Translations under genes and position numbers: made by a program
In this document: in pieces, positions 23,945 through 54,439 of the stretch
How the letters are laid out: each line of letters begins with the position of its first letter
How positions within the stretch are numbered: position 1 is the first letter of the stretch
UHGV virus genome: UHGV-1364441
Direction: 5' to 3' (one strand)
Length of the DNA stretch: 64,000 bases
Origin: a virus
Notes under the pieces: generated by a model
Database searches by the model: none
Told to the model about the DNA's origin: nothing
Seen by the model: only the letters and a program-made list of their open reading frames with translations

Positions 23945-25606
23945 ATGAGTGAGGCAGAAGCCCGCCCGACTAACTTTATTCGTCAGATCATCGATGAAGA
24001 TCTGGCAAGTGGTAAGCACACCACAGTACATACCCGTTTCCCGCCGGAACCGAATGGCTATCTGCATATTGGTCATGCGAAATCTATCTGCCTGAACTTC
24101 GGGATCGCCCAGGACTATAAAGGCCAGTGCAACCTGCGTTTCGACGACACTAACCCGGTAAAAGAAGATATCGAGTACGTCGAGTCGATTAAAAACGACG
24201 TTGAATGGTTAGGTTTTCACTGGTCTGGTAACGTCCGTTACTCCTCCGATTATTTTGATCAGCTCCACGCCTATGCTGTTGAACTGATCAACAAAGGCCT
24301 GGCGTATGTTGACGAACTGACGCCGGAACAGATCCGCGAATACCGCGGCACCCTGACGCAGCCGGGTAAAAACAGCCCGTACCGCGATCGCAGCGTTGAA
24401 GAGAACCTGGCGCTGTTCGAAAAAATGCGTGCCGGTGGTTTTGAAGAAGGTAAAGCCTGCCTGCGTGCGAAAATCGACATGGCGTCGCCGTTTATCGTGA
24501 TGCGCGATCCGGTGCTGTACCGCATTAAGTTTGCTGAACACCACCAGACTGGCAACAAGTGGTGCATCTACCCGATGTACGACTTCACCCACTGCATCAG
24601 CGATGCGCTGGAAGGTATTACGCACTCTCTGTGTACGCTTGAGTTCCAGGACAACCGTCGCCTGTACGACTGGGTGCTGGACAACATCACCATTCCTGTT
24701 CACCCGCGCCAGTACGAATTCTCGCGCCTGAATCTGGAATACACTGTGATGTCCAAGCGTAAGCTGAACCTGCTGGTGACCGACAAGCACGTTGAAGGCT
24801 GGGATGACCCGCGTATGCCGACCATTTCCGGTCTGCGTCGTCGTGGTTACACTGCGGCTTCTATTCGTGAGTTCTGCAAACGCATCGGCGTGACCAAGCA
24901 GGACAACACCATTGAGATGGCGTCGCTGGAATCCTGCATCCGTGAAGATCTCAACGAAAATGCGCCGCGCGCAATGGCGGTTATCGATCCGGTGAAACTG
25001 GTCATCGAAAACTATCAGGGAGAAGGCGAAATGGTCACCATGCCGAACCATCCAAACAAACCGGAAATGGGTAGCCGTCAGGTGCCGTTTAGCGGTGAGA
25101 TTTGGATCGACCGCGCCGATTTCCGAGAAGAAGCTAACAAGCAGTACAAACGTCTGGTGCTGGGTAAAGAAGTGCGTCTGCGTAATGCTTACGTCATTAA
25201 GGCTGAACGCGTGGAGAAAGATGCCGAAGGCAATATCACCACCATCTTCTGTACTTATGACGCCGACACCTTAAGCAAAGATCCGGCAGATGGTCGTAAA
25301 GTGAAAGGCGTTATTCACTGGGTGAGCGCGGCACATGCGCTGCCGGTTGAAATCCGCCTGTACGATCGTCTGTTCAGCGTGCCGAACCCAGGTGCTGCTG
25401 ATGATTTCCTGTCGGTGATTAACCCGGAATCGCTGGTGATCAAACAGGGTTTTGCTGAACCGTCGCTGAAAGAAGCGGTAGCGGGTAAAGCATTCCAGTT
25501 TGAGCGTGAAGGTTATTTCTGCCTCGACAGCCGCCATTCTACGGCGGAAAAACCGGTATTTAACCGCACCGTTGGGCTGCGTGATACCTGGGCGAAGTTA
25601 GGTTAA
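23945..25606 (+). CDS. glnS: glutaminyl-tRNA synthetase
   Basis: 553-aa protein with class I HIGH ([12 protein letters not shown]) and VMSKR motifs; matches enterobacterial GlnRS essentially end to end from memory; own promoter-like upstream region and terminator. Confidence 0.95.
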
Positions 25607-25632
25607 TAGGTATTTCGCCACATAAAAAAGTA

Positions 25633-25656
25633 AACGCCGCTACTGCGGCGTTTTTT
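25633..25656. terminator. bidirectional rho-independent terminator between convergent glnS and dam-like genes
   Basis: aacgccgc-tact-gcggcgtt flanked by A-run upstream and T-run downstream. Confidence 0.7.
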
Positions 25657-26560
25657 ACTTCATTATTGCAATTATATCGTTAGCAACTACACGTGTTGAC
25701 GCCTTGCAGGACACCGACCGTCTGGCTGCCATATGATGTACTTTAAACCCGTTTCCTTCATATAGTTCACGGATGTTTGGCGCACCACTATTTGTTATCA
25801 CTACCTTAGCGCCGCGCTGGTGGGCTTCCACCAATAGAGATACCAGCCGTTTCTGTTCGTCGAAACGGAAGCTATTTCCTGAATAACTGGTAAACCCTTC
25901 TGTATCCGGCAGCGGTTCATACGGCGGATCGCAAAAAATCACATCGCCTTCACCAGCCGCCTCGATGACGCCAGCAAAGTCACCTGATACAAAGGACGTG
26001 TTTTTGAGTACGTCATCAGCCAAAAATGCCTCCATCTCTGCATGTGGGAAGTAGGGCGCTTTGTATTTGCCATACCCCACGTTGAACTCGCCATTTTGGT
26101 TGTACCGCGTTACGCCATTAAAACAGTGCCGATTAAGGTACAAAAAGGCGGCAGCATGATGTAGCTGGTCATACTTTCCTCTGTTAAATGCCTCACGCAC
26201 TTCGAGGTAAGCGTCAGCGTTGTTGTAATTTTTGAAAAAACTATATGACAGCGTGACGAGCGAATGTCCTTCTCGCTGCAATGTCTGATAGAAGTTAATC
26301 AGGTCACCGTTAATATCATTAAGCAGGTTGTGGCGAAATCCTGCATTCGTAAATACGGAACCGCCACCAACGAATGGTTCTATTAACCGCTTACCGTGTG
26401 GTAGATGCTCAAGCACTGTAGGCAATTCTGAGAATTTACCACCTACCCATTTGAATATCGGACGCTCATATTCATCCGGAGTCCGAATGGTGCGCATATA
26501 GCTAATTTCAGCCATCGTATCCTGTTTTTCTATGGCTATGCGTGCTATAGATTTACTCAT
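25655..26560 (-). CDS. dam: Dam-like DNA adenine methyltransferase
   Basis: FKWVGGK and DPPY motifs, collinear with E. coli Dam; start placed at MSKSIAR (AAGGGGG RBS, overlaps stop of upstream ORF); ORF track starts 26656. Confidence 0.8.
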   Translation of the reverse strand: MSKSIARIAIEKQDTMAEISYMRTIRTPDEYERPIFKWVGGKFSELPTVLEHLPHGKRLIEPFVGGGSVFTNAGFRHNLLNDINGDLINFYQTLQREGHSLVTLSYSFFKNYNNADAYLEVREAFNRGKYDQLHHAAAFLYLNRHCFNGVTRYNQNGEFNVGYGKYKAPYFPHAEMEAFLADDVLKNTSFVSGDFAGVIEAAGEGDVIFCDPPYEPLPDTEGFTSYSGNSFRFDEQKRLVSLLVEAHQRGAKVVITNSGAPNIRELYEGNGFKVHHMAARRSVSCKASTRVVANDIIAIMK

Positions 26561-27305
26561 AGAGCACCCCCTTATTCGCTTCGAAAACTGCCTTTGCGAA
26601 TCCATGTGGAGTAGCACTTCGAAAATTAGCCCTGTCAGGCCCTGGTGGCGCGGCATGGATTCTGTTATCTGGCTTGCCTAATGATTCGTCCATTAGGGCA
26701 TCAGGCATGACAAAGCCCTGGCCGCTCCAGAGGCATGTTTTTTTGGTGTAGTTATCTTCCTGACAATATGCAGTGAAGAAGTAAGGGTGAAAGATGTGAT
26801 CTGGCTTACGCCAGAATGTCGATATTTTGCTGACCGGATTTTCAATCATGTACGGACAACCGATCATCTTTGCAATGTCATAACACTGCCAGACAACCTG
26901 CATTGCTTTGAACTGGAAAACCGGATCTTTATTAGCCTTGTCCGAAAACCAGCGCGCGCCGGAAACAGCCAGGTCAGTACACGGTGGGAACCCGGCCAGA
27001 AACACGATGCGCTGCAAATTCTTACGGAGAAAAGCGTATACTTCATCGCTATCGATGATCGCACTAATACGCGTCAGAACGGCACCTGATTGCATCCGCT
27101 CGTCACTGGTCGATAAGTGCTGTGGATCGACGATAGCGGCATCGACACCGTATTCCAGCCAGGGGGCAACCATTGCCCCCGTAAAATCACAAAGACTCAC
27201 AACAAGCGGTCGGTTATTATCGTTCTGCTTCACCGCCAATGGCCTCCACCAGCGCGTTAAACAGTGCAGATAATTCGCCCGTAAAGAGCACGAAATCAGC
27301 ATCAA
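26553..27305 (-). CDS. short C5 cytosine methyltransferase-like protein (start uncertain)
   Basis: Motif I-like DFTGAM, PC motif GFPPC, ENV-like ENPV; only ~215-250 aa so lacks an obvious target-recognition domain; ATG start would overlap rdgC by ~88 nt, alternative GTG near 27200. Confidence 0.5.
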
Positions 27306-28122
27306 ATCGTTGTGCTACATCCTCCCGGTCGATATCGTCGTTCTGGTCATAGAGATCATCACAGAATGTCAGGGCTTTGATACTCATATCATCGTTGACT
27401 CTGAACGACGCACGGTCCATCCAGTTAATTGCAACGGTCGTAGCTACTTTCCCCGCCTCAATGTGAGACATAATCTCGTCGGACTGTAGATCAACTTTGT
27501 TGCAGCGAACGGCACCACCATTATCGAGCAGACCCTTTAATGTGGCGTCTTCACCTGCTGTAAATCCGGCAGGGAAGCCGCTTTTAAACCACTCGGTCAT
27601 TGTAATCTCCAGCGGTTCGCGTGGTGTGAATGGAATGACAGGCAGGCTGCCGAGCGACTTTCGCAATAAAGCCAGCTGGTCCTCTGCCTTTTTGGCGCTG
27701 CTTGCCTCAACGAATACCAGATGGTTGCTGCGGTCGATCAGGATTTTGGCGAGTGATTTTCTCGTGAACGCGCGAGGCAAAAGTGAATGCAGGACTTCAT
27801 CTTTAAGACTGTCTCTTTCCGTTTTCTTCAGCTTGCGGGCTTGCTCTTCTTCGAGTTTCAGGACTTTTTTCTGCAACTCTTCCTTGAGCACCTGCGAGGG
27901 GAGAATTTTTTCTTCTCGCTTATGCTGTATTAGCAGAAAACCCTGGTATTCATGGGTGAGGTTGTCACCAAGAACAGGTGTCCAACCGACTTTAGCTGTG
28001 TCCTGAGAACCGCAAGGAGTAAACACGAATTTGCTAAGAGCATCGGATACTTCTGCGGCACTCCAGTTAACTTCACGTGAAAGACGATAGATGAAGATGT
28101 TTTTGAAAGCGACTGATCTCAT
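27217..28122 (-). CDS. rdgC: recombination-associated protein RdgC
   Basis: Aligns along full length with E. coli RdgC as recalled ([82 protein letters not shown]). Confidence 0.9.
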
Positions 28123-28135
28123 GTTTCACCAATTA

Positions 28136-28166
28136 TGTTAGAAAATTCTATTCAATTATCTAACAT
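28136..28166. promoter_or_regulatory. pair of inverted operator-like motifs 15-45 bp upstream of rdgC start
   Basis: caattatgttagaaaattctattcaattatctaacataattg: 12-bp perfect inverted repeat arms each containing the TGTTAGA core. Confidence 0.55.
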
Positions 28167-28181
28167 AATTGGATGTATTTT

Positions 28182-28835
28182 CTATCCCTTCTTGAAATCA
28201 AAGTTGCTTGCGATAGCCTGGAAGGTGCCTCCAGCCTTGAAATCAATATTTTCGTCGGCTGTCACAGTAATGTTTTTGCCATTAACGCTGATGTTATCGG
28301 CTGATTTGACGTTAACACTCCCTCCCGCATTCACTACTACATCAGCCGGACCAATGATGTATATCTGCCCTGATTCATTCATTCCAATCCTTGAGCCTGC
28401 TGCCGTATTCGCTATTTCATATCCACCGCCAGCCGTTCGCACTTCGAGCACATTGTTGCGGTGAATCACGAAATCTTTTGTCGCCGAAAATTGCGGGCGG
28501 GGAGGCGCTCCGTCTACTTCTGGTGGCGTCCAGCCGCTACCATTGCCTGACGCCTCCGGCGCGACGTTTGGTACTCCGCCAGGCGCATCCTGAGCTGCGC
28601 CAACTATCATTGGGCGTCTGGTATCAATTCGACCATTAACATCCAGATAAGGAAACTCTACCCATACCAGGTCGCCTTTTACTGTAGGTACAAACGCGTT
28701 ACCTATGGGTAACAGGTATTCTGCCCAGGGTAGATCGTCATCAGGAACGCCATTCCAGTCTGGTAAAACACGGACCTGAGCACGCATAAGCCCTGCCGGG
28801 TGCACAGTTCCAACAATTTGCGCTCTACGCTTCAT
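28182..28835 (-). CDS. baseplate spike/hub protein (gpV-like)
   Basis: 217 aa; N-terminal OB-fold-like pattern (GTVHP.G.MRAQVRV...WAEY...GDLVWVEF) then Gly/Asn-rich repetitive C-terminus, like P2 gpV-type spikes. Confidence 0.5.
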   Translation of the reverse strand: MKRRAQIVGTVHPAGLMRAQVRVLPDWNGVPDDDLPWAEYLLPIGNAFVPTVKGDLVWVEFPYLDVNGRIDTRRPMIVGAAQDAPGGVPNVAPEASGNGSGWTPPEVDGAPPRPQFSATKDFVIHRNNVLEVRTAGGGYEIANTAAGSRIGMNESGQIYIIGPADVVVNAGGSVNVKSADNISVNGKNITVTADENIDFKAGGTFQAIASNFDFKKG

Positions 28836-30583: not shown

Positions 30584-31494
30584 TCGATCACTCCGTTTTG
30601 AGTCGTATCAAAATTCCTGGCAGGTATGCAGTAGTAAAGCGAACCAACATGCTGTGTGCCGTAGCTAAAAATACGGTGCACGTACCACCAGCGGCGGGCT
30701 ACGCCGTTTACCATCTCTTCATTCCATTCAAGAATTGACCCGACGGGGACGTTATTTGCTGCAATACGCAGAATCAGAACATCATCGGTTAAGCCATCCT
30801 GCTCACCGTCTGCGTCAATCGCATGGAAAGAGTCACGCCCGTCCGGGTTATCCAGCACATAAACGATTTCAGGTTCCTGGTAAGTCAGTTCGCGCTGGTT
30901 GTTATCCAGTTCAGTGAATGACTCTTCTCCTGTTTCGTCGCTGACTACCCCATATGTGCCAACATCTGGTCGATATAAGAGAGCCTGAAACGCGTCTGGG
31001 CTGGATTCAATAATCAGCATCCAGTCTGCGCGGATTTGGTCGTTAAAGGCTTTATGCCCGTTATAGCGCGCTTTTAGCTGTGGAGTTGGTTCTCTGCCTG
31101 CCAGGGAAGGTGGAAGTATGGCTATATCTGATTCGCCAGCATCTGGAGTAAGGCCACCGTTGCTATCAGCAAAATTATCATGGCTATCAGCTTTGGCGGC
31201 GGGTTGCTCTTCCAGAATGCTGAATGAATCCGAACTGGTATTGCCATGTTCCGGCGCGCCTCCTGCATTCGCTTCAATCGGCGCTGGCGTTTCTCTCTGC
31301 GTGCTGTCATGTTCTGACCCCTTACTTGCCAGGTTTGCATCGTCAGAAAACCATTCGTCAAAACGGCCCATAAGCATCCTCAAAGGTCGATTTATCAGGT
31401 ATCGAGGGGCATTGTCTGGAGATTGTGATTTCACATGAACAAGCTCAAGTTGCACTTGCACTTGCGCATGGTGAATTGGGTTACAATTCATCAC
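30580..31494 (-). CDS. hypothetical protein (acidic, low-complexity N-terminal region)
   Basis: 304-aa ORF; start uncertain. Confidence 0.4.
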   Translation of the reverse strand: MMNCNPIHHAQVQVQLELVHVKSQSPDNAPRYLINRPLRMLMGRFDEWFSDDANLASKGSEHDSTQRETPAPIEANAGGAPEHGNTSSDSFSILEEQPAAKADSHDNFADSNGGLTPDAGESDIAILPPSLAGREPTPQLKARYNGHKAFNDQIRADWMLIIESSPDAFQALLYRPDVGTYGVVSDETGEESFTELDNNQRELTYQEPEIVYVLDNPDGRDSFHAIDADGEQDGLTDDVLILRIAANNVPVGSILEWNEEMVNGVARRWWYVHRIFSYGTQHVGSLYYCIPARNFDTTQNGVIE

Positions 31495-31677
31495 AAAGCC
31501 ATCTTTTATGCTACATTTGCATTTTTTTATTGTTATTATATCATTATTCGTGTCTTAGGCTGATTGTTGTACTATTGCTTGTTGCGAAGTGAATTTGTGC
31601 ATAAGTAACCAGTTGAGTAGAGAGACACGTCGCTCAGAGCGTGGAAAGTATTGAGTGCAATAGAGAGATAATACAAA

Positions 31678-31878
31678 ATGAGGAAGATTCTTTTGACATC
31701 AGAGGTCAAGACCTTGCTACGCATCAAGTCTGATCGGACCCTGACGAAGATGATTAATAGAGGCGAGTTCCCCAAAGGATTCCGTATCGGGCTGCGTCGC
31801 ATTGGCTGGTATGAAGACGAGGTGCTAGCTTGGTTGAAAGAGCGTGAGGAAGAAGCTCGTGGCGGAGAGATGTCATAA
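31678..31878 (+). CDS. AlpA-family phage transcriptional regulator / excisionase-like DNA-binding protein
   Basis: 66 aa with ...RIGLRRIGWYEDEVLAWL... pattern typical of AlpA/Xis HTH proteins. Confidence 0.65.
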   Translation: MRKILLTSEVKTLLRIKSDRTLTKMINRGEFPKGFRIGLRRIGWYEDEVLAWLKEREEEARGGEMS

Positions 31879-31935
31879 TCTCCAACCAGAAGAACTGGAA
31901 TGAGTTCATCCCCGCCCAGAAGGGCGGGGATGACG

Positions 31936-33138
31936 TTAAGTTTTAGCATTGTTCTTCACATATTCCACAAACATCTTTTCTGCTTGTGCTGGTGGCGTGC
32001 CCGTCATGATAAGAGCATCAATAAACGCCTGCTTCTTCAGTGCGAACTGATCAGCAAGGCGTTGCTGAAGTTCCTTGTTTTTCTGTTTCTCTCGTTGCAA
32101 AGCTGCTTCTTTTGCCTCCGCCCGTTTTTTCTGTGCGTCTGACAACTTTCTGGCCCTGGTCAGTTGGTCACGTAGCTTGTCGATCTTGCCGTTGTCCTTT
32201 GCCAGTTTTGTACTTAAAGCGGTCTGGCGCTTCTGATAGAGCCTCCATTCGCGCTTGGCGGCGTCAACGTTCGTTTTACTGCTACGATTGCGATTAAACT
32301 CCTTCTCGTCTTCTTTTGAGAAGTGTTTGGTTGTACGGCGCCGATCGTCACCAAATGCAATTTGCGTTGCGGCCTTTTGTAACGCACGAGCAATACTCAT
32401 TTGCCAACTGGCGGACTGTAACCGCGTCATTGAGTGGATCACGTGTTTACAGGCGACGCCTTGTAGCTTAGGGTTACGAACTTTTGGATAGGCGTATTCT
32501 TTTGGCGGGGCCAGGGCAAAGTTACCCGCAGTAGCAATGTAACGATACCAGTATTGATGACGACCACAGTCACAATCGAAAGACACTCGCCCGGCGCACA
32601 GTGATTTAGTGATTTTGAGAGCTGATTTATCGTCTTCTGCGATGTCATCAACCATCTGATCCCATTCTTCAAAGCGTATACGGACGATATGGTGCTGGTG
32701 GACGGATATATCCGATGCTTCTACGCGGATATTAATCACATTGTGGCGAAGAGATACGGGTGTAGCTCTTTTGATACCAGATCCGTCATCCACGGCGTTA
32801 TTTGCACGCTTAATATCGATTGCCTGGCTGGATGCCACCAGCTGGGCGTATGTGATGCCAGCCGTCTTGCTGTCATATTTTTCGCGCGTTTTACTCCGTA
32901 GCTTTTCGAAACCTTTCAGGTCGTCTCGCGTGAAGAACGTGCCGCCTTTTTTCTTCCCTAACTTGAGAATATCTTCGGCGGATTTGTTCCTCAGTCTACC
33001 TGGCGTCAGCGTCCGGTGAGCTTGTCGGCGCTTACGGGTTTGTTCTTTCCTGATAAGCTCGAATAAACGCGTGAAGTCCTTAGAGGACAGGCCGTCAGTG
33101 ATATAGCGCCCGTCCTGGTTTTTCAGGAAATCAGGCAT
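31936..33138 (-). CDS. SWIM-type zinc-finger protein with basic coiled-coil C-terminus
   Basis: 400 aa; CAGRVSFDCDCGRHQYWYRYI...ACKHVIH gives a CxCx(n)CxH arrangement; C-terminal ~90 aa Lys/Arg/Glu-rich. Confidence 0.5.
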   Translation of the reverse strand: MPDFLKNQDGRYITDGLSSKDFTRLFELIRKEQTRKRRQAHRTLTPGRLRNKSAEDILKLGKKKGGTFFTRDDLKGFEKLRSKTREKYDSKTAGITYAQLVASSQAIDIKRANNAVDDGSGIKRATPVSLRHNVINIRVEASDISVHQHHIVRIRFEEWDQMVDDIAEDDKSALKITKSLCAGRVSFDCDCGRHQYWYRYIATAGNFALAPPKEYAYPKVRNPKLQGVACKHVIHSMTRLQSASWQMSIARALQKAATQIAFGDDRRRTTKHFSKEDEKEFNRNRSSKTNVDAAKREWRLYQKRQTALSTKLAKDNGKIDKLRDQLTRARKLSDAQKKRAEAKEAALQREKQKNKELQQRLADQFALKKQAFIDALIMTGTPPAQAEKMFVEYVKNNAKT

Positions 33139-33460: not shown

Positions 33461-33551
33461 AACAAAGCTCCTCAGTCATAACCTGGGGAAACTTTATGGA
33501 GGATGTGAAATGCGAGAAAGCAGCGTCACCAGGGCGGGTGACGCTGTGAAA

Positions 33552-33845
33552 TTAAGCGTGGAAAAATAACGGGCGGATATTTGGGCGAGCGGTTTGTGAA
33601 GCGACCCAAAGCTCATACTGGGATTGCATACCAGTCCACATCTCGGCACTGGTTCCCAGAGCAGATTCCAGACGAAGCGCCATATCAGCAGAAATCCCTG
33701 CTTTCTCGTTCAGAATCCGAGAAAGCGCCGTGCGAGTAATGCCTAATGCGGCAGCTGCATCTGTGACTGATATGTCTCCCAGATACTCACGAAGAACCGC
33801 GCCAGGATGCGCGGGATTATGCATACGACTCATAGTGTTCCTCAA
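33552..33845 (-). CDS. higA: HigA-family antitoxin (XRE HTH)
   Basis: [15 protein letters not shown]...[37 protein letters not shown] is the characteristic HigA/VapI pattern; overlaps toxin gene by 4 nt. Confidence 0.8.
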
Positions 33846-34123
33846 TGATAATCCTGATAGTCAACAAGAATTGCGTCTTCGCCTTCAAATCGGAAGGTAA
33901 GTCGCCAGTTACCGTTTACTGATATTGCCCAGTGACCTTTAAGGTCTGCCCCCTTTAGTGGGTGCAATTCCCATCCCGGCGCAGACATATCGTCCGGGCG
34001 TTTAGCTGCATTAAGAGCAGTCAATTGAATGCGTAGCTTAATCGCATGTTTAGCTTGAATGCCTGCTGTTGATCCTGTCTTGAAAAATCGTTCAAGCCCT
34101 TTATGGCGAAATGACTTAATCAA
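33842..34123 (-). CDS. higB: HigB-family toxin (RelE/ParE superfamily)
   Basis: (M)[17 protein letters not shown]... with C-terminal [14 protein letters not shown]; start assigned to TTG at 34123 (ORF track extends to TTG at 34186 through the palindromic operator). Confidence 0.75.
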
Positions 34124-34147
34124 AATAACTTCATCCGTGCCTGTATC

Positions 34148-34161
34148 CTGTGTATACACAG
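34148..34161. promoter_or_regulatory. 14-bp perfect palindrome (ctgtgtatacacag) upstream of higB, putative HigA operator
   Basis: Read in sequence ~25 bp upstream of proposed TTG start. Confidence 0.5.
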
Positions 34162-34459
34162 TACACACGGAGAGGGCAAAGTGCAAGCACTATTCGGATG
34201 AACAGAGTTAGTTCGTTGTTCTGGAATTTATTGATTGTCAACAAGTGACTTTCATTAAACTTAAGGCATGGACCAGCTCGATAGTGAGCTGGTTGTTATC
34301 TACAGATCGAAGGGATTCGACAAGATGAATACTTTTAATAAGCTGATTGATTTATTGAATAAATTCATTAGCGCCTCTTTAACTAAGCAGGTGTCCACGT
34401 CAGTGTTTTTGTTACTCTTCTACCTGGTATTGCGGGAGTTAACAAAGCTACTGATGTGA

Positions 34460-35381: not shown

Positions 35382-36005
35382 ATGAAGGACGGTGTAGTGA
35401 AGTTAAGGGTTTTGGGGGCCGCGCTCGCGGCTATGCTGGGATGTGTATCTGTAAATACAGCCACTGCAACTGCGTTACCCGCACAATTCAGGGCAGGGAA
35501 GCAGGTTATGAATAATGCTGGCGGGGATCGTTCGCAGGCGGCGATATTGGACTTTTGCAAGAGGGAGGGCATCCCATTGCGGCCTGTTGGCACTCAGTTT
35601 GTTGGCAATTCTGACTTTTGCGTTTTTGCATATACAGCGTATCTGACTGATAAAGCTATAACAAAAACAGGTTATTCAACTAAAGATACTCTTGCCAGAT
35701 TAAGTCAGGGATGGCAGCAATTCGAAGTGTATCGCCAGCAAGGATTAGGTGAGCTATTGCAGCCACTTTTTATGCTTGCCTTGGTGCCAGAAGGGCAGCA
35801 ATTTTTGGTTAAAAAGAGAATGCTTCGCCAAAGCGATGTTGCCGGGTTCGATAGCATGATGGCTTATGAGCGCCAACTAACTGAGCAGCGCAATAAAAAA
35901 CCATCTGCATCATGTGTGCAAAGTAAAACAGCAGAATACAGTGCAGTGGCTGGTCCTTTAGCCAAACAAATGGCAGAGCAATGGTGTAAAAAGTACGGGC
36001 AATAA
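35382..36005 (+). CDS. secreted protein / possible lipoprotein
   Basis: N-terminal signal peptide (LRVLGAALAAMLGC); no family recognised. Confidence 0.5.
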   Translation: MKDGVVKLRVLGAALAAMLGCVSVNTATATALPAQFRAGKQVMNNAGGDRSQAAILDFCKREGIPLRPVGTQFVGNSDFCVFAYTAYLTDKAITKTGYSTKDTLARLSQGWQQFEVYRQQGLGELLQPLFMLALVPEGQQFLVKKRMLRQSDVAGFDSMMAYERQLTEQRNKKPSASCVQSKTAEYSAVAGPLAKQMAEQWCKKYGQ

Positions 36006-36025
36006 GTTACGTAGCGGAGGCAAAA

Positions 36026-36418
36026 TTGAAAAAATTAGCTATTGCTTTATTGGCTGCTTTTCCTTTGCTGGCAGACGCTGGGAATCTGCAAGTGAAATGC
36101 GGTCAGTTTGATATAAAAATCTATCCAAACGCTATATTTCTGAACGGGAATAAGGTCGATAACGCACATCGTAAAACTGAATCTGACGTAATGAGTTATG
36201 TGTTCCAGGAATATGCAGAGATGGGAGGCACTTATACGCTGTACTCGCTTGATGTTCCTTCTCGCGGTGATATGACATTATCCCATCAATGGCAGAATGC
36301 CGATGGCGAAGCTCTGCGCGAGGTGAAGACAGAAAAATGTGGCACTTTCCATTCTTTTGAGGGTAAAGCGCCAAATGTTAAATCTGTGCTTGAAAAACAG
36401 CGTGCAGGTGAGTTTTAA
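36026..36418 (+). CDS. secreted protein
   Basis: Signal peptide MKKLAIALLAAFPLLADA; 130 aa. Confidence 0.5.
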   Translation: MKKLAIALLAAFPLLADAGNLQVKCGQFDIKIYPNAIFLNGNKVDNAHRKTESDVMSYVFQEYAEMGGTYTLYSLDVPSRGDMTLSHQWQNADGEALREVKTEKCGTFHSFEGKAPNVKSVLEKQRAGEF

Positions 36419-36432
36419 CCAGTATTAATTAT

Positions 36433-36470
36433 GCCGCCCCACCTTATAGCGGAGTGGGGCGGATTGTTCC
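36433..36470 (+). terminator. rho-independent terminator after secreted-protein pair
   Basis: ccgcccca...tggggcgg hairpin followed by T-rich tract. Confidence 0.5.
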
Positions 36471-36964
36471 CATTGTTATTTTTTTCTTTTCATTTTCATG
36501 GATTGTTTACAGGCATAAGCCAACGCCTTAGCTTTCACTTCATCCAGTTTCCCTGTAATCACTTCTTTTCCGAGAGTGACAAACCAGTCATAGCAACCGC
36601 CAGTGATGTTCTGGATTTGATAATTCAGGTAGCGAACGGTCATTTTGATACTCCCTCCAGTTTTGATGGGAGCAAAGAACGCAGGTTATTGCGTGAGTAG
36701 ACGGTGAGTGATGGGAAAAGTTTGTAATTGTTCATAGTGACTCCTTGCTTTCGAAGCCGTCACAGACTGTTCCACGGTCTGGTGGCGGCGCAATACAGGT
36801 TGGAACACCGTGAGTCAACGGGGGCTTTTAGCCACCTGTATTGCGCTGCCATAACTATGACATTGGCAATCATACGAAATCCTTGAGGATTTGTCTCGTT
36901 GCGTCGAGCGGTGAACCAATCTAATCAAAATGTACAATCAGTAAATTTCAAACTCAACATAAAA

Positions 36965-37553: not shown

Positions 37554-37600
37554 GTTGGCTGCCTCTTACTTATCAGCGATTTTTTTATGATTGATCATCT

Positions 37601-37631
37601 TTGTTAGATATTCAAAATTGATTTTCTAACA
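37601..37631. promoter_or_regulatory. inverted pair of operator-like motifs in divergent promoter region between ref-like gene and 37827 gene
   Basis: tgttagatattcaaaattgattttctaaca. Confidence 0.5.
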
Positions 37632-37826
37632 TAAAACATTAATATCAGTCGCTGTTTACTGTTTGGAGGACATGATGCTTATAGCCTTAAGTGCGATCCA
37701 CCAGCCACCTGTGAATGAGATCGGCCTGTTTTATGTGCTGTTTTTCGGCGCGTTGGCGCTACTTGAGCTTGGTATTGAGCTTTTTGCAGTGCTTATGTTT
37801 TGCGTCACGATGCTGGGGAAATTTTG

Positions 37827-42412: not shown

Positions 42413-42428
42413 TGAGGTGGATCAAAAA

Positions 42429-43118
42429 ATGAAAGAACGCGGGATGATTTTTAACGATGAGATGGTCAGGGCCATCCTCGAAGGAGGGAAGACGCAGACT
42501 CGCCGACCTGTAAAAAATGTCAGGGCCGATAACTGCCTGGTTATCCGTAAACCGACAAAGAAACGCAATGGTGTCTATACCCACGTTATGGATGCACCTG
42601 AACATGGTTTATGCCCGTTCGGTAACGTTGGTGATCGCATATGGGTCCGTGAGGCGTGGGCGATATTAGGCAATGAGGATGGTTGCAGTGTGGACTGGAA
42701 CGACAACCTTTGTCGTGGCGATGAGAAGAACGCAGCAAGGATTTATCGGGCCAGTTGTGAGCAAAAGCCGGGTGATTACGGCTTGTGGTCGATACCCGAT
42801 GATGCCGACTGGAAACCTCACACTGTGAATGAAAAATTTGATGGCGGGTGGTGTCCATCAATTCACATGCCGCGCTGGGCATCGCGCATTCTTCTGGAAA
42901 TTACCAACGTGCGCGTTGAGCGGTTGAACGATATCAGCGAATGCGATGCAAGGGCTGAGGGCGCACCAACAGAATCGACCCTCATTGGCGATAAGCATTA
43001 CCCAAGTTTCCGTAGCCTATGGAAATCAATTTATGGCGAAGATAGTTGGAACGCTAATCCCTGGGTGTGGGTAATCGAGTTTAAGCGTATTCAGGGGGCA
43101 ACCAGTGAGCAAAATTAA
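42429..43118 (+). CDS. hypothetical prophage protein
   Basis: MKERGMIFNDEMVRAILEGGKTQTRRP N-terminus common in lambdoid prophage proteins; GAGGTGG RBS. Confidence 0.45.
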   Translation: MKERGMIFNDEMVRAILEGGKTQTRRPVKNVRADNCLVIRKPTKKRNGVYTHVMDAPEHGLCPFGNVGDRIWVREAWAILGNEDGCSVDWNDNLCRGDEKNAARIYRASCEQKPGDYGLWSIPDDADWKPHTVNEKFDGGWCPSIHMPRWASRILLEITNVRVERLNDISECDARAEGAPTESTLIGDKHYPSFRSLWKSIYGEDSWNANPWVWVIEFKRIQGATSEQN

Positions 43119-43803
43119 CTATCAAGAACTGCGCGAGGCGGCGGAACAGGCAACGCAAGATGAATGGGTAGCATATATTTTGCCGGGTCATAACGGCATT
43201 TATCCTGCGCGCACGTCTGAGGGTAGGCATTGCGGATACTTTATTGACTGGCCTGGCATTGATGGACAAAGGAATGCTGGTGCTAATGCCCGTTATATCG
43301 CGGCCATCCCACCAAAAGTTGCGCTGGCACTCCTGGGCGAAATTAAGCGCCTGGAGGACACAAATATTGATGCTATGTGCCGAATAGCACCGCTTGAGAC
43401 TAAGCTCGCGGCTCTGGTGGCAGAGAACGCCGGGCTGAAACTCGCAATGGCTGTAACTCTTGATCATGTGTCGGTCACGGATGCAGGGCAGGCCGGAGTT
43501 GCTGCAATGATTATCAACGATGCTCTGCACCACAGCGAAACCCCAGCCACCGATGCTTTTCTGGCTGAAGGGAAGACTGAAGCACGCAAGGAAGGCGCTT
43601 ATTTTGTGGCGAACAGAATGTTGGCAGCCTGGAAAGCTGGTTTTATTGATGATACTGCGAAGAACGCTGCGGATATTGCCCGGATGATCCTTACCTCTAC
43701 TGAGTTTATGACTAATGCGCCGGAAAGCCATTTTGATCGCTCATTCTCTGATGGCGTTCTCGAAGATATCGCCGAACAGCTTCGTAAAGGAGTCATCCAA
43801 TGA
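43105..43803 (+). CDS. Ea22-like protein, paralog
   Basis: GTG start; shares SKI(N/D)YQ.LREAAE N-terminus and [10 protein letters not shown] block with neighbours. Confidence 0.5.
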   Translation: MSKINYQELREAAEQATQDEWVAYILPGHNGIYPARTSEGRHCGYFIDWPGIDGQRNAGANARYIAAIPPKVALALLGEIKRLEDTNIDAMCRIAPLETKLAALVAENAGLKLAMAVTLDHVSVTDAGQAGVAAMIINDALHHSETPATDAFLAEGKTEARKEGAYFVANRMLAAWKAGFIDDTAKNAADIARMILTSTEFMTNAPESHFDRSFSDGVLEDIAEQLRKGVIQ

Positions 43804-44303
43804 GCAAGATTGACTATCAGGCACTGCGTGAGGCGGCAGAGAAAGCAACGTGGGGAGACTGGGACTCATATAAACCACACCGTGGCGCACGTGGTTATGA
43901 GGTCCGACTAAGTAGTCAGGCCATCGCGCAACACGTTCTGAAAAACAACGCTGAATTTATTGCTGCCTTTAATCCAAAGATTGCATTGGCACTACTGGAT
44001 GAACGGGAAAGGAACCAGCAATACATCAAATCCCGCGACCAGGAGAACGAGGATATTGCGCTAACGGTAGGGAAGCTGCGCGAGAAGCTGGAAGCCGCAG
44101 AGAAGCGCATTGCAGAGTTAGAAAGTGGTTCTCAGGCACAAAAGTTAGTTGAAGCAATCATTGTTGCGATAGAAAACGAACAGGAAAGGCTTTTTGATGA
44201 AGATTACCTAATGGATTCGAAAGAATGCATTGACGTAATTCGTGAAGAAGTAAAGCGATGGAATGATTCCCGTGCCGCTGGCATTCGCATCAAAGGAGAG
44301 TGA
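43800..44303 (+). CDS. Ea22-like protein, paralog
   Basis: MSKIDYQALREAAEKAT... N-terminus near-identical in pattern to 43105 gene; coiled-coil. Confidence 0.5.
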   Translation: MSKIDYQALREAAEKATWGDWDSYKPHRGARGYEVRLSSQAIAQHVLKNNAEFIAAFNPKIALALLDERERNQQYIKSRDQENEDIALTVGKLREKLEAAEKRIAELESGSQAQKLVEAIIVAIENEQERLFDEDYLMDSKECIDVIREEVKRWNDSRAAGIRIKGE

Positions 44304-44304
44304 T

Positions 44305-44499
44305 ATGGCAACCAACAACCGTAAAGCAAAGATTCTGTTAGTTCGTAGAAACGCTCCTGGCGTCTGGCAGTGGGTGAGACTCAGCAACCGACGGATGGGG
44401 TTGATGAAATATTACGGGATGATGGATTGTGGTTTTTGCAAAAAGCCCAGCGCGGCGCAAAACCGCTGGAAAAACCATTTGCGCACTAAAGGAGAGTGA
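44305..44499 (+). CDS. hypothetical small basic protein
   Basis: MATNNRKAK...; preceded by aaaggagagtgatATGgc cassette. Confidence 0.35.
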   Translation: MATNNRKAKILLVRRNAPGVWQWVRLSNRRMGLMKYYGMMDCGFCKKPSAAQNRWKNHLRTKGE

Positions 44500-44500
44500 T

Positions 44501-44710
44501 ATGGCTATTGCCGCAAGTTACACCATGCATCTCTATTGTGACTGCCGCCAGTGTACGGAAGGTGTATATCCAGTGCCAGACTTCGGTGAATATATCGGTA
44601 CGTCATGGGCTGGCTGTGCAAAAGAGGCACGTAAGGATGGCTGGCGAATAAGCAAAGACAAAACACGTGCTTTTGCGCCCGGGCATAAAGTTTTGAGGAT
44701 TAACAAATGA
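44501..44710 (+). CDS. hypothetical small Cys-rich protein
   Basis: MAIAASYTMHLYCDCRQCTEG...; preceded by the same 18-bp aaaggagagtgatatggc cassette. Confidence 0.35.
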   Translation: MAIAASYTMHLYCDCRQCTEGVYPVPDFGEYIGTSWAGCAKEARKDGWRISKDKTRAFAPGHKVLRINK

Positions 44711-45396
44711 CCACTTTAACCGACAAAGAACTGATTAAAGAAATCAAAGAGCGTATCAGCAGCCTGGACGTTCGAGACAATATTGAACGCCGGGCTTATG
44801 AAATTGCACTGGCATCGCTGGAAGCAGATCCAGTTGCTTATATTTTCAAACATCCGGCCGGGAAATTATTCTGGGCTTTAACGGATGAAAGCAATAAAGA
44901 GCAACCGGACGTTATTCCTGTTTATGCTGCCGCGCCTGCGTCGGTTGTGCCGGATAATGCATCAGAGCCTCTTGCTTATGCTTACAAAGAGCTTACGCCT
45001 GAGATTATGCGCAACCAGGCTGCCGAATCCAATCGCGGTAATGAGTGGACCGGCAATCCTGATATTGATAACGCCATCATCATGCTCGACCGCATAGATA
45101 CGCTGGAAAATTGCGATGATGACCGTATTGAGGCTGTTAAGGCTGTTTTGCGTAGACTGGCTGGCAACTCTCCGGTAACTCCGGATGGTTGGATAAGCTG
45201 TAGTGAGCGAATGCCGGATAGCAAAACAGCCGTTCTTGTTGCCAGGGAGTTTGACAGGAAAGGTGACTGGCGAATGAAATGGGCGACTTACATCCCGGGG
45301 CATCCTGACGCTAATGATGGGTGGATAATTCCAGGTGCGTCGTGGATACCATCACACTGGATGCCGCTACCAGAACCGCCGCAGGAGGCGAAATGA
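44707..45396 (+). CDS. DUF551-domain prophage protein
   Basis: C-terminal DGWISCSERMPD...WMPLPEPP pattern typical of DUF551. Confidence 0.5.
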   Translation: MTTLTDKELIKEIKERISSLDVRDNIERRAYEIALASLEADPVAYIFKHPAGKLFWALTDESNKEQPDVIPVYAAAPASVVPDNASEPLAYAYKELTPEIMRNQAAESNRGNEWTGNPDIDNAIIMLDRIDTLENCDDDRIEAVKAVLRRLAGNSPVTPDGWISCSERMPDSKTAVLVAREFDRKGDWRMKWATYIPGHPDANDGWIIPGASWIPSHWMPLPEPPQEAK

Positions 45397-45653
45397 TGGA
45401 TGTAAAAGAGAAGGTTTTGCAGGTGATGCGTTCCCGGGCTGCCCTGCAAGATAAAGCTCTCGGCGGGGAATATCCATTCAGGATGGCAACCTGGAATTTG
45501 CGGTTGGCAATGGAGAAGGAATTTCCTGATGAAGAATGGCGCTCGGCAGATTTGCGCAAAATTCTTATGGAGCTGGCTAAAGACGGAACAGTATCCAAAG
45601 ATACCCATGCCAGCCGGATTGGTCAGGCGGTATGGAGACTGGAGGTGAGGTAA
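45393..45653 (+). CDS. hypothetical small protein
   Basis: MMDVKEKVLQ... with GGAGG RBS (ORF track starts 45321). Confidence 0.4.
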   Translation: MMDVKEKVLQVMRSRAALQDKALGGEYPFRMATWNLRLAMEKEFPDEEWRSADLRKILMELAKDGTVSKDTHASRIGQAVWRLEVR

Positions 45654-45934
45654 TGGCTAACCTGCAACTTGCCGTCAAAGGTGAATACTTCGATGACATG
45701 ATTCGCGGGGAGAAAACGGAAGAGTATCGCCTGTGTAATGGCTACTGGAATAAGCGAATCATGTTCCGGGAATATGACCGCCTGATTATCACAAAGGGAT
45801 ATCCGAAGCGCGACGATTCCAGTCGCAGAATAGACGTCCCGTATAACGGATATGAAATCAAGACAATCACACATCCGCACTTCGGTGATAAACCGGTAAA
45901 GGTGTACGCGATAAAGGTGAATATCAATGGCTAA
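45653..45934 (+). CDS. hypothetical small protein
   Basis: MANLQLAVKGEYFDDMIRGEKTEEYR...; RBS GGTGAGG. Confidence 0.4.
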   Translation: MANLQLAVKGEYFDDMIRGEKTEEYRLCNGYWNKRIMFREYDRLIITKGYPKRDDSSRRIDVPYNGYEIKTITHPHFGDKPVKVYAIKVNING

Positions 45935-46379
45935 ATTTCAAAGAGCTATTATTTTTCTGGCTATGTTATCAGCCAGTCATTTATCCCACGCGTCAGTTAT
46001 TGCCGCTGGAGCGGCGGCAACAGCGGCGGCAACAGCGGCGGCAACAGCAGCGGCAACAGCAGCGACCACGGCGGCAGTAAATGCTTCTATCGCCAGCGAG
46101 CAAGCGCGGCGTGCTGCAACCAATGCTTCCGCAAACACCACCACGGTATCAGTCACACAATCAAAACCGAATATAGGCTTTGTTACTTGCGGAAAGAGGA
46201 ATAGCGAAATGGTTGGTTCTCTTGGTTGTGTAATGTGGCAAGAGGACGATAGACCTGAAATCCCGTGGAACTCATGGCCTGGTTACATTCTTGGTAAGAA
46301 GATACCCACCAGCTATGAAGTAAATGCTATTTCATTCGACCAATATAACGGTGTTGCAACGGTGTATTTTCTGTATTAA
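45927..46379 (+). CDS. secreted protein with Ala/Thr repeat tract
   Basis: Signal peptide then AAATAAATAAATAAATAATTAA encoded by tandem 9-bp gcggcggca/acagcggcg repeats. Confidence 0.5.
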   Translation: MAKFQRAIIFLAMLSASHLSHASVIAAGAAATAAATAAATAAATAATTAAVNASIASEQARRAATNASANTTTVSVTQSKPNIGFVTCGKRNSEMVGSLGCVMWQEDDRPEIPWNSWPGYILGKKIPTSYEVNAISFDQYNGVATVYFLY

Positions 46380-46391
46380 CACGGAGTAATT

Positions 46392-46685
46392 ATGTGGCGT
46401 GGTAATAGTCATGGCAGAAGCCAGATGATACTTACCGAATATACGTTAGACCACAAAACCAATAAATCACGCTCAGTATATTTGCTTCGGCACAATAGCC
46501 GCGTAAGGAATACCGTGCTGGAGCAAAATCTGACCGTTGAAATGGATAATTTTGGGAACTTCAAGCCAACAATAGCGCTTGATGATTTTCCGCGTGGTTT
46601 AAGCGAAAGAGAAGCAATGCTTAAATTAGCAGAATGGCTACAGAGATTAAGTATTGCTATTGAAGATAACTGGAGCAATCCGTAA
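46392..46685 (+). CDS. hypothetical protein
   Basis: 97-aa ORF. Confidence 0.4.
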   Translation: MWRGNSHGRSQMILTEYTLDHKTNKSRSVYLLRHNSRVRNTVLEQNLTVEMDNFGNFKPTIALDDFPRGLSEREAMLKLAEWLQRLSIAIEDNWSNP

Positions 46686-46925
46686 TGAAAAATAAAAAGT
46701 TTTGGTCTACGTTTTTATTTGTCTGTGTTTGTGGCTTTTTTGTTGCTTTAGCTGGTGGCGTAGAATGGGGAACGGAGAACTGCGGCGTAATGGTTGGTGA
46801 CACCTTATTACTCGCGGGCATGTTAGCTTTTATTCGTTCATGAGAAAGATTCAAACCACCAGCAATATTATTACCCCTGTCGTTACGGCAGGGGGCTGCA
46901 ACACTGTGTAATTGAGTAATTTTAT

Positions 46926-47300
46926 ATGATGACATTCAAACATTTTCTTGACCGTCCATTATGGGCGGCAGCCGCAGGCTATGACTTTAATTATATGGAT
47001 TGCATGTCTTATACCGCCAATGCATACGACCATTCCTTCAGTCTGCTGTTTAATTCTTTAAGAATATTGCCGCAAACAGAAGTTGGAGAGCTTCATTTAT
47101 GGCTATTGGGCTTTATCGCGGCTGGAGTTGGTATTGCTGTATGGCCTTTTATTTTCTGGCTGGTGGCTGTTGTAGTGTGGTTTAAGTGCAAGGCATACCG
47201 GAATAAGTATTTCTTAGGTGATGGAATGACTGATATTGCCAAAAGGAACATTGAAAATTGGACCAAAGAATGCGAAAAGAAATGGAGCAACAAGAAATGA
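46926..47300 (+). CDS. membrane protein
   Basis: Hydrophobic stretch LWLLGFIAAGVGIAVWPFIFWLVAVVVWF. Confidence 0.45.
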   Translation: MMTFKHFLDRPLWAAAAGYDFNYMDCMSYTANAYDHSFSLLFNSLRILPQTEVGELHLWLLGFIAAGVGIAVWPFIFWLVAVVVWFKCKAYRNKYFLGDGMTDIAKRNIENWTKECEKKWSNKK

Positions 47301-48013
47301 CCAGAATCACTAAATTGCGCATATCAGAGATTATTGCACGCATCGAAATGTATGGACACGGTGCTGGATATACGGCAGATGAGGTGTTGGAGCTTGCCAA
47401 AATAGCGTTAGCAACCTGCAAGGATGGTGAAACCATAAAGCTGATTGACTTGTTGGTGCAGGAGCTGCCAAAGCGTGGAGGGTGGCCTGATGATGTGCTC
47501 GATTGTCGCATGGTTAGAGAGGACGAGTATGAACCATCATATGGCCTCTTTGCTTTTGGCTCTGACCCAGCAAAAAGCCTGCGAGGACGCCATTTTTGCC
47601 TTGAGGTCAGACTCCCGATAAGTAACCTTGATCGTGAGGAATACACGGAAATAATTTCGCGCAAACAATACGAAGAGGCTCTAGAAGCATCCAGTAAGTT
47701 AAATTTTGAGCAATGGCTGGAACAGCAACGCGGGAAAATCGATGTGGACTGTGGTTGTGTGTCCACTGAAACATTCATGCACTGGCTGCGGGTAGCTTAC
47801 GAGGCTGGCAACCATCCGGATTTTCCGGATAGTTCCCAACAATCGCCCAAGAAAAGCGTAAAAACCACTCTGGAAAGAGGCTATCTTGAGGCCGCATTAA
47901 AGATTAAGCCGGGCCATACGCTAGGCGTCATTGATGCCATGTTGGTTCATGAAATGGCGAAGGCTTTATTGCCGCTGGTGGCTGATAAAATTCCGAATAA
48001 AGCCGATATCTGA
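47297..48013 (+). CDS. hypothetical protein
   Basis: Start MTRITKL by ATGA coupling (ORF track 47258). Confidence 0.45.
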   Translation: MTRITKLRISEIIARIEMYGHGAGYTADEVLELAKIALATCKDGETIKLIDLLVQELPKRGGWPDDVLDCRMVREDEYEPSYGLFAFGSDPAKSLRGRHFCLEVRLPISNLDREEYTEIISRKQYEEALEASSKLNFEQWLEQQRGKIDVDCGCVSTETFMHWLRVAYEAGNHPDFPDSSQQSPKKSVKTTLERGYLEAALKIKPGHTLGVIDAMLVHEMAKALLPLVADKIPNKADI

Positions 48014-48052
48014 TCACCATGCTAAAATCCCCTCAATTCACAGAGGGGATTT

Positions 48053-48325
48053 TTGTATATGTTGCATAGAGTTTTATGGAAAAGCGTTATTGTCGGCGCG
48101 ATCTTGGCTATGTCTGGGTGTGCTATGGTGCAATACAATGACGGAGAAAAGGTTAGCATCCAGTCAGATGGTTGGTATGGCCTGGATAGCCTGCAAAAAA
48201 CAGCGGATAAAGCCTGCCAGCAATACGGAAAGTCTAAAGCCGTATATCAGCATAGTGCTAACGCTAATCCTCATCTTGCGCCCGGAACAGGCGTTCAGAA
48301 TACCATCTGGAAATGTGAGCCTTAA
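48053..48325 (+). CDS. lipoprotein
   Basis: Signal peptide with lipobox (AILAMSGC). Confidence 0.5.
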
Positions 48326-48327
48326 AT

Positions 48328-48579
48328 ATGAGCGACTGGAATATTGCAGCTAAAAGTCAGGAAGAACGGGATAAGGTTAACGTTGATCTGGCTGCCAGCG
48401 GTGTGGCGTACAAAGAGCGATTGAACATACCTGTCATAGCTGAACAGGTAGCCCGCGAGCAACCAGAGAATCTGCGCACCTATTTCATGGAACGGCTACG
48501 GCACTACCGGCAGTTAAGCCTCCAGTTGCCAAAAGGGAGCGATCCGGTGTATCAGAACGAGGATGCACCAAAAAAATAA
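48328..48579 (+). CDS. hypothetical protein
   Basis: 83-aa ORF. Confidence 0.4.
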
Positions 48580-48702
48580 CGGCAAGATGGGGGAGAAATG
48601 TGATTAGCCCCCAGCGTGGCGCGCCTACAAACCCAGCTTTCACAAACTATGCCTTTTCAATGTATACTGTATGAATAAACAGTATCATTAAGGTAAAACG
48701 CT

Positions 48703-54083: not shown

Positions 54084-54439
54084 GAAACTATTTAACCTCT
54101 ATATACAGATGACGCTACGCGAAAAATATAAAAATGACAGGGTAGCTATAAGTTAATTTTCAAGATTCAAGCCTTTGATTCGAGGCACGTATTTTCAGTG
54201 ATGTCAATACTGATCATCTACCCATGATTATAGCCTAACTTTAAATAATGCCAATTATCTAAAGTTAGAAATTTAGGAATTTTTTTTCTTTCCGCGCAGA
54301 TGGGCAATGCATTGCTGGTGTGGGCTTTAAGTTATGCCTGGCAGTTTTTAAGCAGAATTTTCTAAATTGGATGATAAAAAAATGCATCTTGATCCTTTAC
54401 TCACCCTGTTATTCGGCATAGATTTGTCATAGTAATTTT

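Follow-up and report, generated by a model that had tools for sequence, protein, structure and literature searches.

A probable D6-type version of the P1-family hrdC-dam operon, with an exchangeable cytosine-methylase cassette, in a D6-like plasmid prophage

A 2.6-kb stretch of virus genome UHGV-1364441 was analysed within a window of 64,000 nucleotides (nt); the window is the whole length of DNA analysed, and all positions refer to it. The stretch very probably represents the D6-type version of an early operon of the P1 family, in which hrdC, a cytosine-methylase module and dam follow one another, here carried on a D6-like plasmid prophage. Three open reading frames (ORFs) lie on the minus strand (Table 1): hrdC, which codes for an RdgC homologue (the gene is also referred to as rdgC), a C5-methyltransferase-like gene, named here orf64 after its counterpart in Escherichia phage D6, and dam. 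An earlier note on this DNA had described such a co-directional set, and all three ORFs were recovered; the hrdC stop overlaps the orf64 start by 17 nt, and the orf64 stop overlaps the ATG of dam by 8 nt (TATGAGTAA). The same note took the two methylase ORFs for a split and reordered form of Dmt, the fused methylase of P1. Comparison with related elements indicates that this two-gene arrangement is instead one allele of a polymorphic cassette, and not a broken Dmt.

The stretch showed 97% identity to phage D6 (MF356679). In PLSDB, 120 plasmids matched it, 97 of them across at least 80% of its length; they were plasmids of E. coli, Salmonella and Shigella, nearly all of about 90 kb and non-mobilisable. 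By these matches the window is a D6-like phage-plasmid (plasmid prophage) of the P1 family. The operon is already annotated in D6, and is thus a known P1-family operon in its D6 allele: the D6 record lists orf65 as hrdC/RdgC, orf64 as a ‘putative DNA-cytosine methylase’ and orf63 as a ‘site-specific DNA-adenine methylase, similar to C-term half of P1 dmt only’. The window agrees with D6 in its gene order and overlaps and also in its flanks, with glnS downstream and baseplate gene 5 upstream. Identity at the DNA level was 100% for orf64, 99.8% for dam and 92.9% for rdgC, and the two differ only allelically, by a recombination boundary that falls within rdgC or close to it and by a small number of substitutions in the arms of the candidate operator. 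The near-identity of orf64 and dam to D6, set against the lower value for rdgC, is a sign of mosaicism, which would place a boundary of recent recombination close to where rdgC meets orf64. A paper on a D6-like Salmonella plasmid does not mention hrdC, orf64 or dam.

The first gene of the operon was readily assigned. The hrdC product matched PF04381 (E 5e-103, 344.9 bits) over profile positions 3–298 of 298, and NF001462 with 381 bits (cut-off 330). It is 51% identical to P1 HrdC and aligned over its full length with E. coli RdgC (2OWL; 372 bits), so that its description as host-like holds. Its homology marks it as a DNA-binding protein of the recombination-associated RdgC family. Like E. coli RdgC it would be expected to modulate RecA, and it presumably restrains the action of RecA on phage DNA during replication.

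The assignment of dam was equally clear. Its product matched PF02086 (E 2e-56, 191.9 bits; cut-off 22), TIGR00571 (249.3 bits; cut-off 114.85) and E. coli Dam structures (201 bits), and its translation carries the FxGxG (EPFVGGGSVF) and DPPY (CDPPYEPL) motifs. With 69% identity to residues 478–753 of P1 Dmt, it is, as judged from these matches, a Dam-family N6-adenine DNA methyltransferase of the D12 class, orthologous to the C-terminal domain of Dmt. The same level of identity leads to the prediction that it methylates the adenine of GATC. By analogy with P1, this methylation would serve pac cleavage and packaging; according to PMC12707154, which cites Sternberg and Coulby 1990, pac cleavage in P1 requires methylated GATC, and dmt is for this reason essential in dam- hosts. 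CRISPR interference showed uhr, hrdC and dmt of P1 to be dispensable where the host is Dam+ (PMC10695390).

The P1 record (AF234172) shows the order Odmt (formerly Op68, a monovalent C1 operator), Pdmt, uhr, hrdC, dmt. The layout of the window, an operator-like element followed by rdgC, a methylase gene and dam, is homologous to it, and the unit described in the earlier note is therefore sound as a whole; both operons run from an RdgC homologue to a cytosine-methylase function and then to a Dam function. The reordering that the note had seen, however, does not exist. P1 Dmt (754 amino acids, aa) matches PF00145 from residue 8 to about 460 and PF02086 at residues 493–725, which places the C5 domain at the N-terminus and the Dam domain at the C-terminus, the same order as in the window. 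The two operons differ in other respects. P1 has a single monovalent operator, uhr as an additional first gene, and one 754-aa fusion with a PF00145 C5 part. The window has a bivalent candidate operator of another sequence, lacks uhr, and has the operon directly after baseplate gene 5; further, its cytosine-methylase module is a separate, unrelated small protein, so that the two methylase functions are encoded by two ORFs with their own starts and stops, both kept in relatives.

The notion of a split Dmt was thus right only on the surface. The Dam ORF does correspond to the C-terminal domain of Dmt, but the ORF upstream of it is not derived from Dmt. A BLASTP comparison of the orf64 product with the N-terminal domain of P1 Dmt gave an E value of 2.9, and hhalign, run with a 41-sequence profile of the orf64 family against the P1 C5 domain, returned a probability of 0.1%. 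This lack of similarity indicates that orf64 is not a piece of Dmt. It belongs to a different family and appears to have been swapped in as a cassette, and the natural split proposed earlier is not supported.

The exchange can be read from several D6-like plasmids, whose matches to the query fell into two parts separated by an unmatched middle. At this locus, plasmid pZX30-94k (NZ_OR257471) carries one gene of 762 aa and NZ_CP066033 one of 691 aa; both products contain PF00145 followed by PF02086, and both genes are flanked by glnS, rdgC and the baseplate gene. In these fused alleles the N-terminal part of the protein is near-identical to P1 Dmt, while the Dam part is of the D6 type. They share with the window the locus, rdgC, the candidate operator and the D6-type Dam core, with 98–99% DNA identity up to position 26485. 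When the window was compared with two such variants (L005 and L006) by blastn, the breakpoints fell at 26485/26486 and 27216/27217; DNA similarity ran from glnS to 26485 and resumed at 27217, the rdgC stop. The exchanged cassette thus comprises all of orf64 but its first 17 nt, together with the initial 25 codons of dam. In the fused alleles its place is taken by 1.3–1.4 kb encoding a P1-type C5 domain and a linker, in frame with the Dam core. The first four codons (VKQN), which overlap the end of rdgC, are common to the fused and the two-gene alleles. That other D6-like plasmids have a fused Dmt of the P1 type in this position points to cassette exchange. The N-terminal leader of dam was considered as a possible remnant of the Dmt linker and rejected; the amino acid resemblance is faint, there is no DNA similarity, and the homology breaks at 26485/26486. 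P1-family phage-plasmids would accordingly keep the Dam core while swapping the cytosine-methylase module that precedes it, a clean natural case of cassette exchange between a domain and a gene.

The orf64 product is the least familiar of the three. It matched phrog_757, a family labelled ‘DNA methyltransferase’, with an E value of 3e-78. Neither Pfam (PF00145 included) nor NCBIfam gave a match even at E 10, and HMMER searches of PDB sequences, with the single sequence and then with the 41-sequence profile, found none. Its AlphaFold model had a pLDDT (predicted local distance difference test score) of 86, and the top fold matches of this model in both the PDB and the viral (BFVD) structure libraries were DNA C5-methyltransferases; in BFVD, phage ‘DNA-cytosine methylases’ came first, followed by canonical C5 enzymes. 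In an alignment of 41 sequences of the orf64 family, the segments LCD..G, DPQH, FPPC, ENP and RSATP.GF were invariant. They provide motifs I, II, IV (PC), VI (EN-) and an X-like motif in canonical order. The catalytic cysteine, whose presence the earlier note had left to be checked by alignment, is there in every sequence as part of FPPC. The canonical C5 enzymes (PF00145; M.HhaI, DNMT3 and Dcm among them) and the orf64 product share a Rossmann-type catalytic fold, the order of the motifs, the Pro-Cys and the E-N-x. They differ in that no homology between them was detectable with HMMER or hhalign, and in that the orf64 product is about 100–250 residues shorter, with a minimal, conserved target-recognition region. 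From its motifs and its modelled fold, it is predicted to be a small stand-alone C5-methyltransferase-like enzyme that modifies DNA cytosine. The presumed role of the cytosine-methylase module is to mark or protect the element's DNA.

The short length of this ORF, which had been regarded as unusual, turned out to be ordinary. Matches to the phrog_757 family were found by tblastn in 1,580 phage records. The family, for which Pfam and NCBIfam have no model, comprises more than 7,600 proteins in 90% clusters, nearly all labelled ‘hypothetical’, and 2,626 clusters at 50% identity, mostly of 205–250 aa. Homologues of orf64 measure 215–230 aa, and the family takes in genes that T1-like, phiKO2 and SHWT1 phages carry under the labels Dcm or cytosine methylase. 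With 226 aa, orf64 is a full-length, typical member. A literature search turned up no biochemical study of any member of the family. No defence-system model of PADLOC matched RdgC or orf64, and Dam matched generic methyltransferase models only.

In the genomes sampled, genes of the phrog_757 family mostly stand alone, whereas in the window orf64 appears to be translationally coupled to dam. In lambdoid prophages from Cronobacter, Pseudomonas and a metagenome (L008–L012), a gene of this family occurs by itself in the nin region, between ninB and ninE/ninF, and no Dam or restriction gene adjoins it in these nin regions. Its solitary position there suggests a function that is independent of Dam. 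A literature search for characterised orphan cytosine methylases of nin regions returned nothing relevant. Two homologues bear on function and are in keeping with a C5-methyltransferase-like enzyme. One (P0216) is interrupted by an intein with Hint and LAGLIDADG domains, whose insertion point immediately precedes the cysteine of FPPC. In the other (P0121, 563 aa), an orf64-type domain (56% identity) is naturally fused to a Dam domain (50% identity), and the two domains follow one another as the two genes do in the window.

It might be argued that the orf64 product is not a DNA 5-methylcytosine (5mC) methyltransferase, but that it performs other chemistry (transfer of a carboxymethyl or other group), acts on RNA, or serves as a Dam-dependent subunit. 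The failure to match PF00145 or NCBIfam would fit this, as would the very short segment at the position of the target-recognition domain, whose conservation throughout the family is unusual, and the existence of the natural fusion with Dam. The alternative nevertheless seems improbable. The best fold matches in both libraries are DNA C5-methyltransferases, the C5 motifs occur in canonical order with an invariant cysteine, and the gene of the lambdoid nin regions manages without Dam, which is hence not needed; further, in sister plasmids the slot of orf64 is held by a canonical C5 domain. A DNA cytosine methylase therefore remains the preferred reading of orf64. A wider proposal is that orf64 and phrog_757 form a distinct minimal clade (about 220 aa) of the C5-methyltransferase fold, which in D6-like elements supplies one module of a cytosine-plus-adenine modification unit with Dam; this is put forward tentatively, and is itself rather unlikely. 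If it were true, the conservation of the ‘recognition’ segment across phrog_757 would imply one shared specificity, a very relaxed one, or chemistry beyond plain 5mC. The second module, Dam, would be coupled translationally or, elsewhere, fused, and the orf64 module would be swappable for a canonical C5 domain.

The region upstream of hrdC contains a 19-nt inverted repeat (arms 28129–28147 and 28154–28172) with one mismatch and a 6-nt spacer. The earlier note had postulated an inverted operator pair here; the repeat is real and is made up of two copies of a motif that is dispersed and enriched in the window. The copies have the form (A/G)TGTTAGAAAAT(T/C) and lie tail to tail at 28135–28147 on the plus strand and at 28166–28154 on the minus strand, with a 6-nt gap. 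With at most one mismatch, the core ATGTTAGAAAAT occurred 10 times in the window, against 0.27 occurrences expected in shuffled sequences. A scan with a position weight matrix found 12 sites scoring more than 25 bits, and the range from 12 to 25 bits was empty; the matrix had been built from the same sites, which makes the scan circular, yet it shows that the sites form a discrete class. An exact 14-mer of the repeat arm had given no more additional matches than expected by chance, all with three mismatches, and the motif emerged with a core of 12–13 nt. The sites were placed by mapping onto the D6 annotation (Table 1). The hrdC and pdcB pairs have one and the same geometry, tail to tail with a 6-nt gap, and the sites at ref (37600–37612 and 37620–37632) are also tail to tail, about 7 nt apart. 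One further candidate, at 54262, was not counted as an operator since it falls inside the rox inverted repeat of 54235–54268. This repeat, with 15-nt arms and a 4-nt spacer, is the D6 equivalent of lox and lies beside a cre homologue; it contains AAGTTAG.

The C1 regulon of P1 also includes c1, lpa and ref, and the distribution of the motif in the window mirrors that regulon (c1, lpa, ref and dmt/Op68). The P1 record gives Op68, from which P1 controls uhr, hrdC and dmt, and the ban operator as C1 sites. The consensus of the P1 C1 operator (ATTGCTCTAATAAATTT) had no match in the window at up to three mismatches, which indicates that an operator used here would be a different word. The dispersed copies thus constitute a candidate C1 regulon of the D6 type, with a sequence unlike that of the P1 operator. 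As for the claim that the operon is operator-controlled, the repeat is a candidate operator that is probably bound by the C1-type repressor of the element; this is its most likely role. The word (A/G)TGTTAGAAAAT would then apparently be the one used by the D6-type repressor, and with it the immunity regulon can be mapped in these widespread plasmids. A candidate promoter for the operon was recognised at the same place, with a -35 region TAGAAA (28184–28179), a spacer of 18 nt and a -10 region GATAAT (28160–28155). The -10 region lies inside the promoter-proximal copy of the motif, where it is created by the half-site TGTTAGATAATT, which is invariant in five variants. Transcription would be predicted to start close to 28150, a few nucleotides past the -10 region.

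Several observations weigh against an operator or would fit a rival reading, in which the 19-nt repeat serves chiefly as a hairpin in RNA or DNA, which could mask the hrdC Shine-Dalgarno sequence, provide a processing site in late read-through from the tail operon, or extrude as a cruciform. Folded as RNA, the repeat reached -24.1 kcal/mol (z -4.55), and none of 200 shuffled sequences folded as well. Outside an invariant core, the arms change symmetrically across all five variants compared (the window, D6, L005, L006 and L007), for example ATTATG/CATAAT versus TTTGTG/CACAAA versus AACTGTG/CACAGTT, so that the palindrome is kept. The last letters of the 3′ arm are the GG of GGTGA, the Shine-Dalgarno sequence of hrdC, and the hairpin abuts this sequence. 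No terminator was found between baseplate gene 5 and hrdC, and late read-through could also express the operon. The promoter, for its part, is a match from a consensus scan that agrees at 9 of 12 positions. Against a hairpin as the main role, some copies of the motif are solitary (upstream of c1, upstream of lpa and elsewhere) and have no partner with which to form a hairpin, and the pdcB pair has the same geometry without the extended complementarity. A perfect palindrome of operator half-sites will always fold well on paper, and the symmetric changes in the arms, which could reflect selection for a hairpin, could equally stem from template-switch mutation at a quasipalindrome. The two roles are not mutually exclusive. 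That the hairpin is the main one is considered quite unlikely, and the operator reading is retained.

The three genes appear to be intact. In D6 and in three further variants with 88%, 79% and 74% DNA identity, hrdC, orf64 and dam are all uninterrupted. Pairwise dN/dS values (nonsynonymous to synonymous substitution rates) among variants were 0.05–0.13 for hrdC, 0.07–0.085 for orf64 and 0.07–0.15 for dam, which marks all three as being under purifying selection. Intact ORFs in divergent relatives, together with dN/dS values of 0.05–0.15, argue against sequencing error, decay and programmed frameshifting, the last two of which had been offered as explanations of the two-ORF arrangement, and the first as what would undo it. 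The values for orf64 in particular are not those of a decaying gene, and the same architecture recurs in phage D6, which was sequenced independently, and in some 97 plasmids of PLSDB. In the Shigella plasmid variant with 79% identity (L014), the frame of orf64 is closed one codon upstream of its GTG and that of dam directly upstream of its ATG, which settles both start codons. The start of orf64, described before as ambiguous, can hence be placed at the GTG at 27233; this gives the 226-aa product, and the GTG is kept in all variants, including those with the fused gene. The 8-nt overlap of orf64 and dam is also kept in the variants, whereas the longer open dam frame of the window is not.

The weakest alternative, that a P1-type dmt was split by a frameshift (through an error in sequencing, through a mutation that recently made it a pseudogene, or through programmed ribosomal frameshifting that yields a C5-Dam fusion), could appeal to the two overlapping methylase-like ORFs where P1 carries one gene and to the dam frame that stays open for about 100 nt upstream of the ATG in the window, but it is highly improbable and, as far as sequence analysis goes, refuted, given an upstream ORF that is unlike the Dmt C5 domain and full length for its own family, the dN/dS values of the two methylase genes (0.07–0.15), the closed dam frame of L014, the shared architecture, and a junction (TATGAGTAA) that is a standard ATG/TAA coupling overlap in which no slippery heptamer was seen. 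For annotation, the locus is best entered as the P1-family hrdC-dmt operon in its D6 allele rather than as a damaged gene, and merging the short ORF with dam or flagging it as a pseudogene should be avoided.

The operon might thus work as follows. In a lysogen, the C1-type repressor would probably occupy both operator copies of 28129–28172, which cover the -10 and the start region of a weak putative sigma-70 promoter. On derepression, hrdC, orf64 and dam would be transcribed as one unit, and their translation would be coupled through the 17-nt and 8-nt overlaps. The expected products are an RdgC-like DNA-binding protein, a small C5-methyltransferase-like enzyme and a Dam methylase. Ahead of the conserved Dam core, the window and D6 carry an unrelated small methylase gene, whereas P1 and some D6-like plasmids carry a canonical C5 domain fused to that core. 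What is of interest beyond a known operon is the polymorphism of the cassette and the small methylase family, which is very common in enterobacterial phages.

Table 1. Positions of the operon features and of the dispersed operator-like motif in the 64,000-nt window
Feature	Position	Strand	Remarks
hrdC	27217..28122	-	301 aa, PF04381
orf64-type C5-methyltransferase-like gene	26553..27233	-	226 aa, GTG start, phrog_757
dam	25655..26560	-	301 aa, ATG start, PF02086 + TIGR00571
Exchangeable cassette	26486..27216	-	blastn breakpoints
Inverted repeat, operator-like	28129..28172		two motif copies
Candidate sigma-70 promoter	28155..28184	-	consensus scan
Terminator-like hairpin	25632..25653		stem + T-runs on both strands
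Motif site	54440		just upstream of c1, which starts near 54478
Motif site	58871		upstream of lpa
Motif sites	36964, 37620		flanking and upstream of ref
Motif pair	41344/41363		upstream of pdcB
Motif site	53039		upstream of the dUTPase operon
Motif site	18227		between gene 23 and orf52
Motif sites	62588, 62739		near the tRNA cluster

The downstream end of the operon is marked by a hairpin between the convergent genes glnS and dam, with a 9-bp stem that includes six G-C pairs and with T-runs on both strands; from these features it is a bidirectional element resembling an intrinsic terminator. Elsewhere in the window, blastn delimited four segments without a counterpart in D6 (approximately 31431–31942, 33523–34398, 35433–36500 and 42414–48607). 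The gap at about 31431–31942 corresponds to the region of the RelE/HigA modules of D6, and these gaps in the D6 alignment were read as replacements of accessory genes. The gene glnS (23945–25606, plus strand), which converges on dam, encodes a full-length glutaminyl-tRNA synthetase of 553 aa; it corresponds to orf62 of D6 and is present in most of the matching plasmids.

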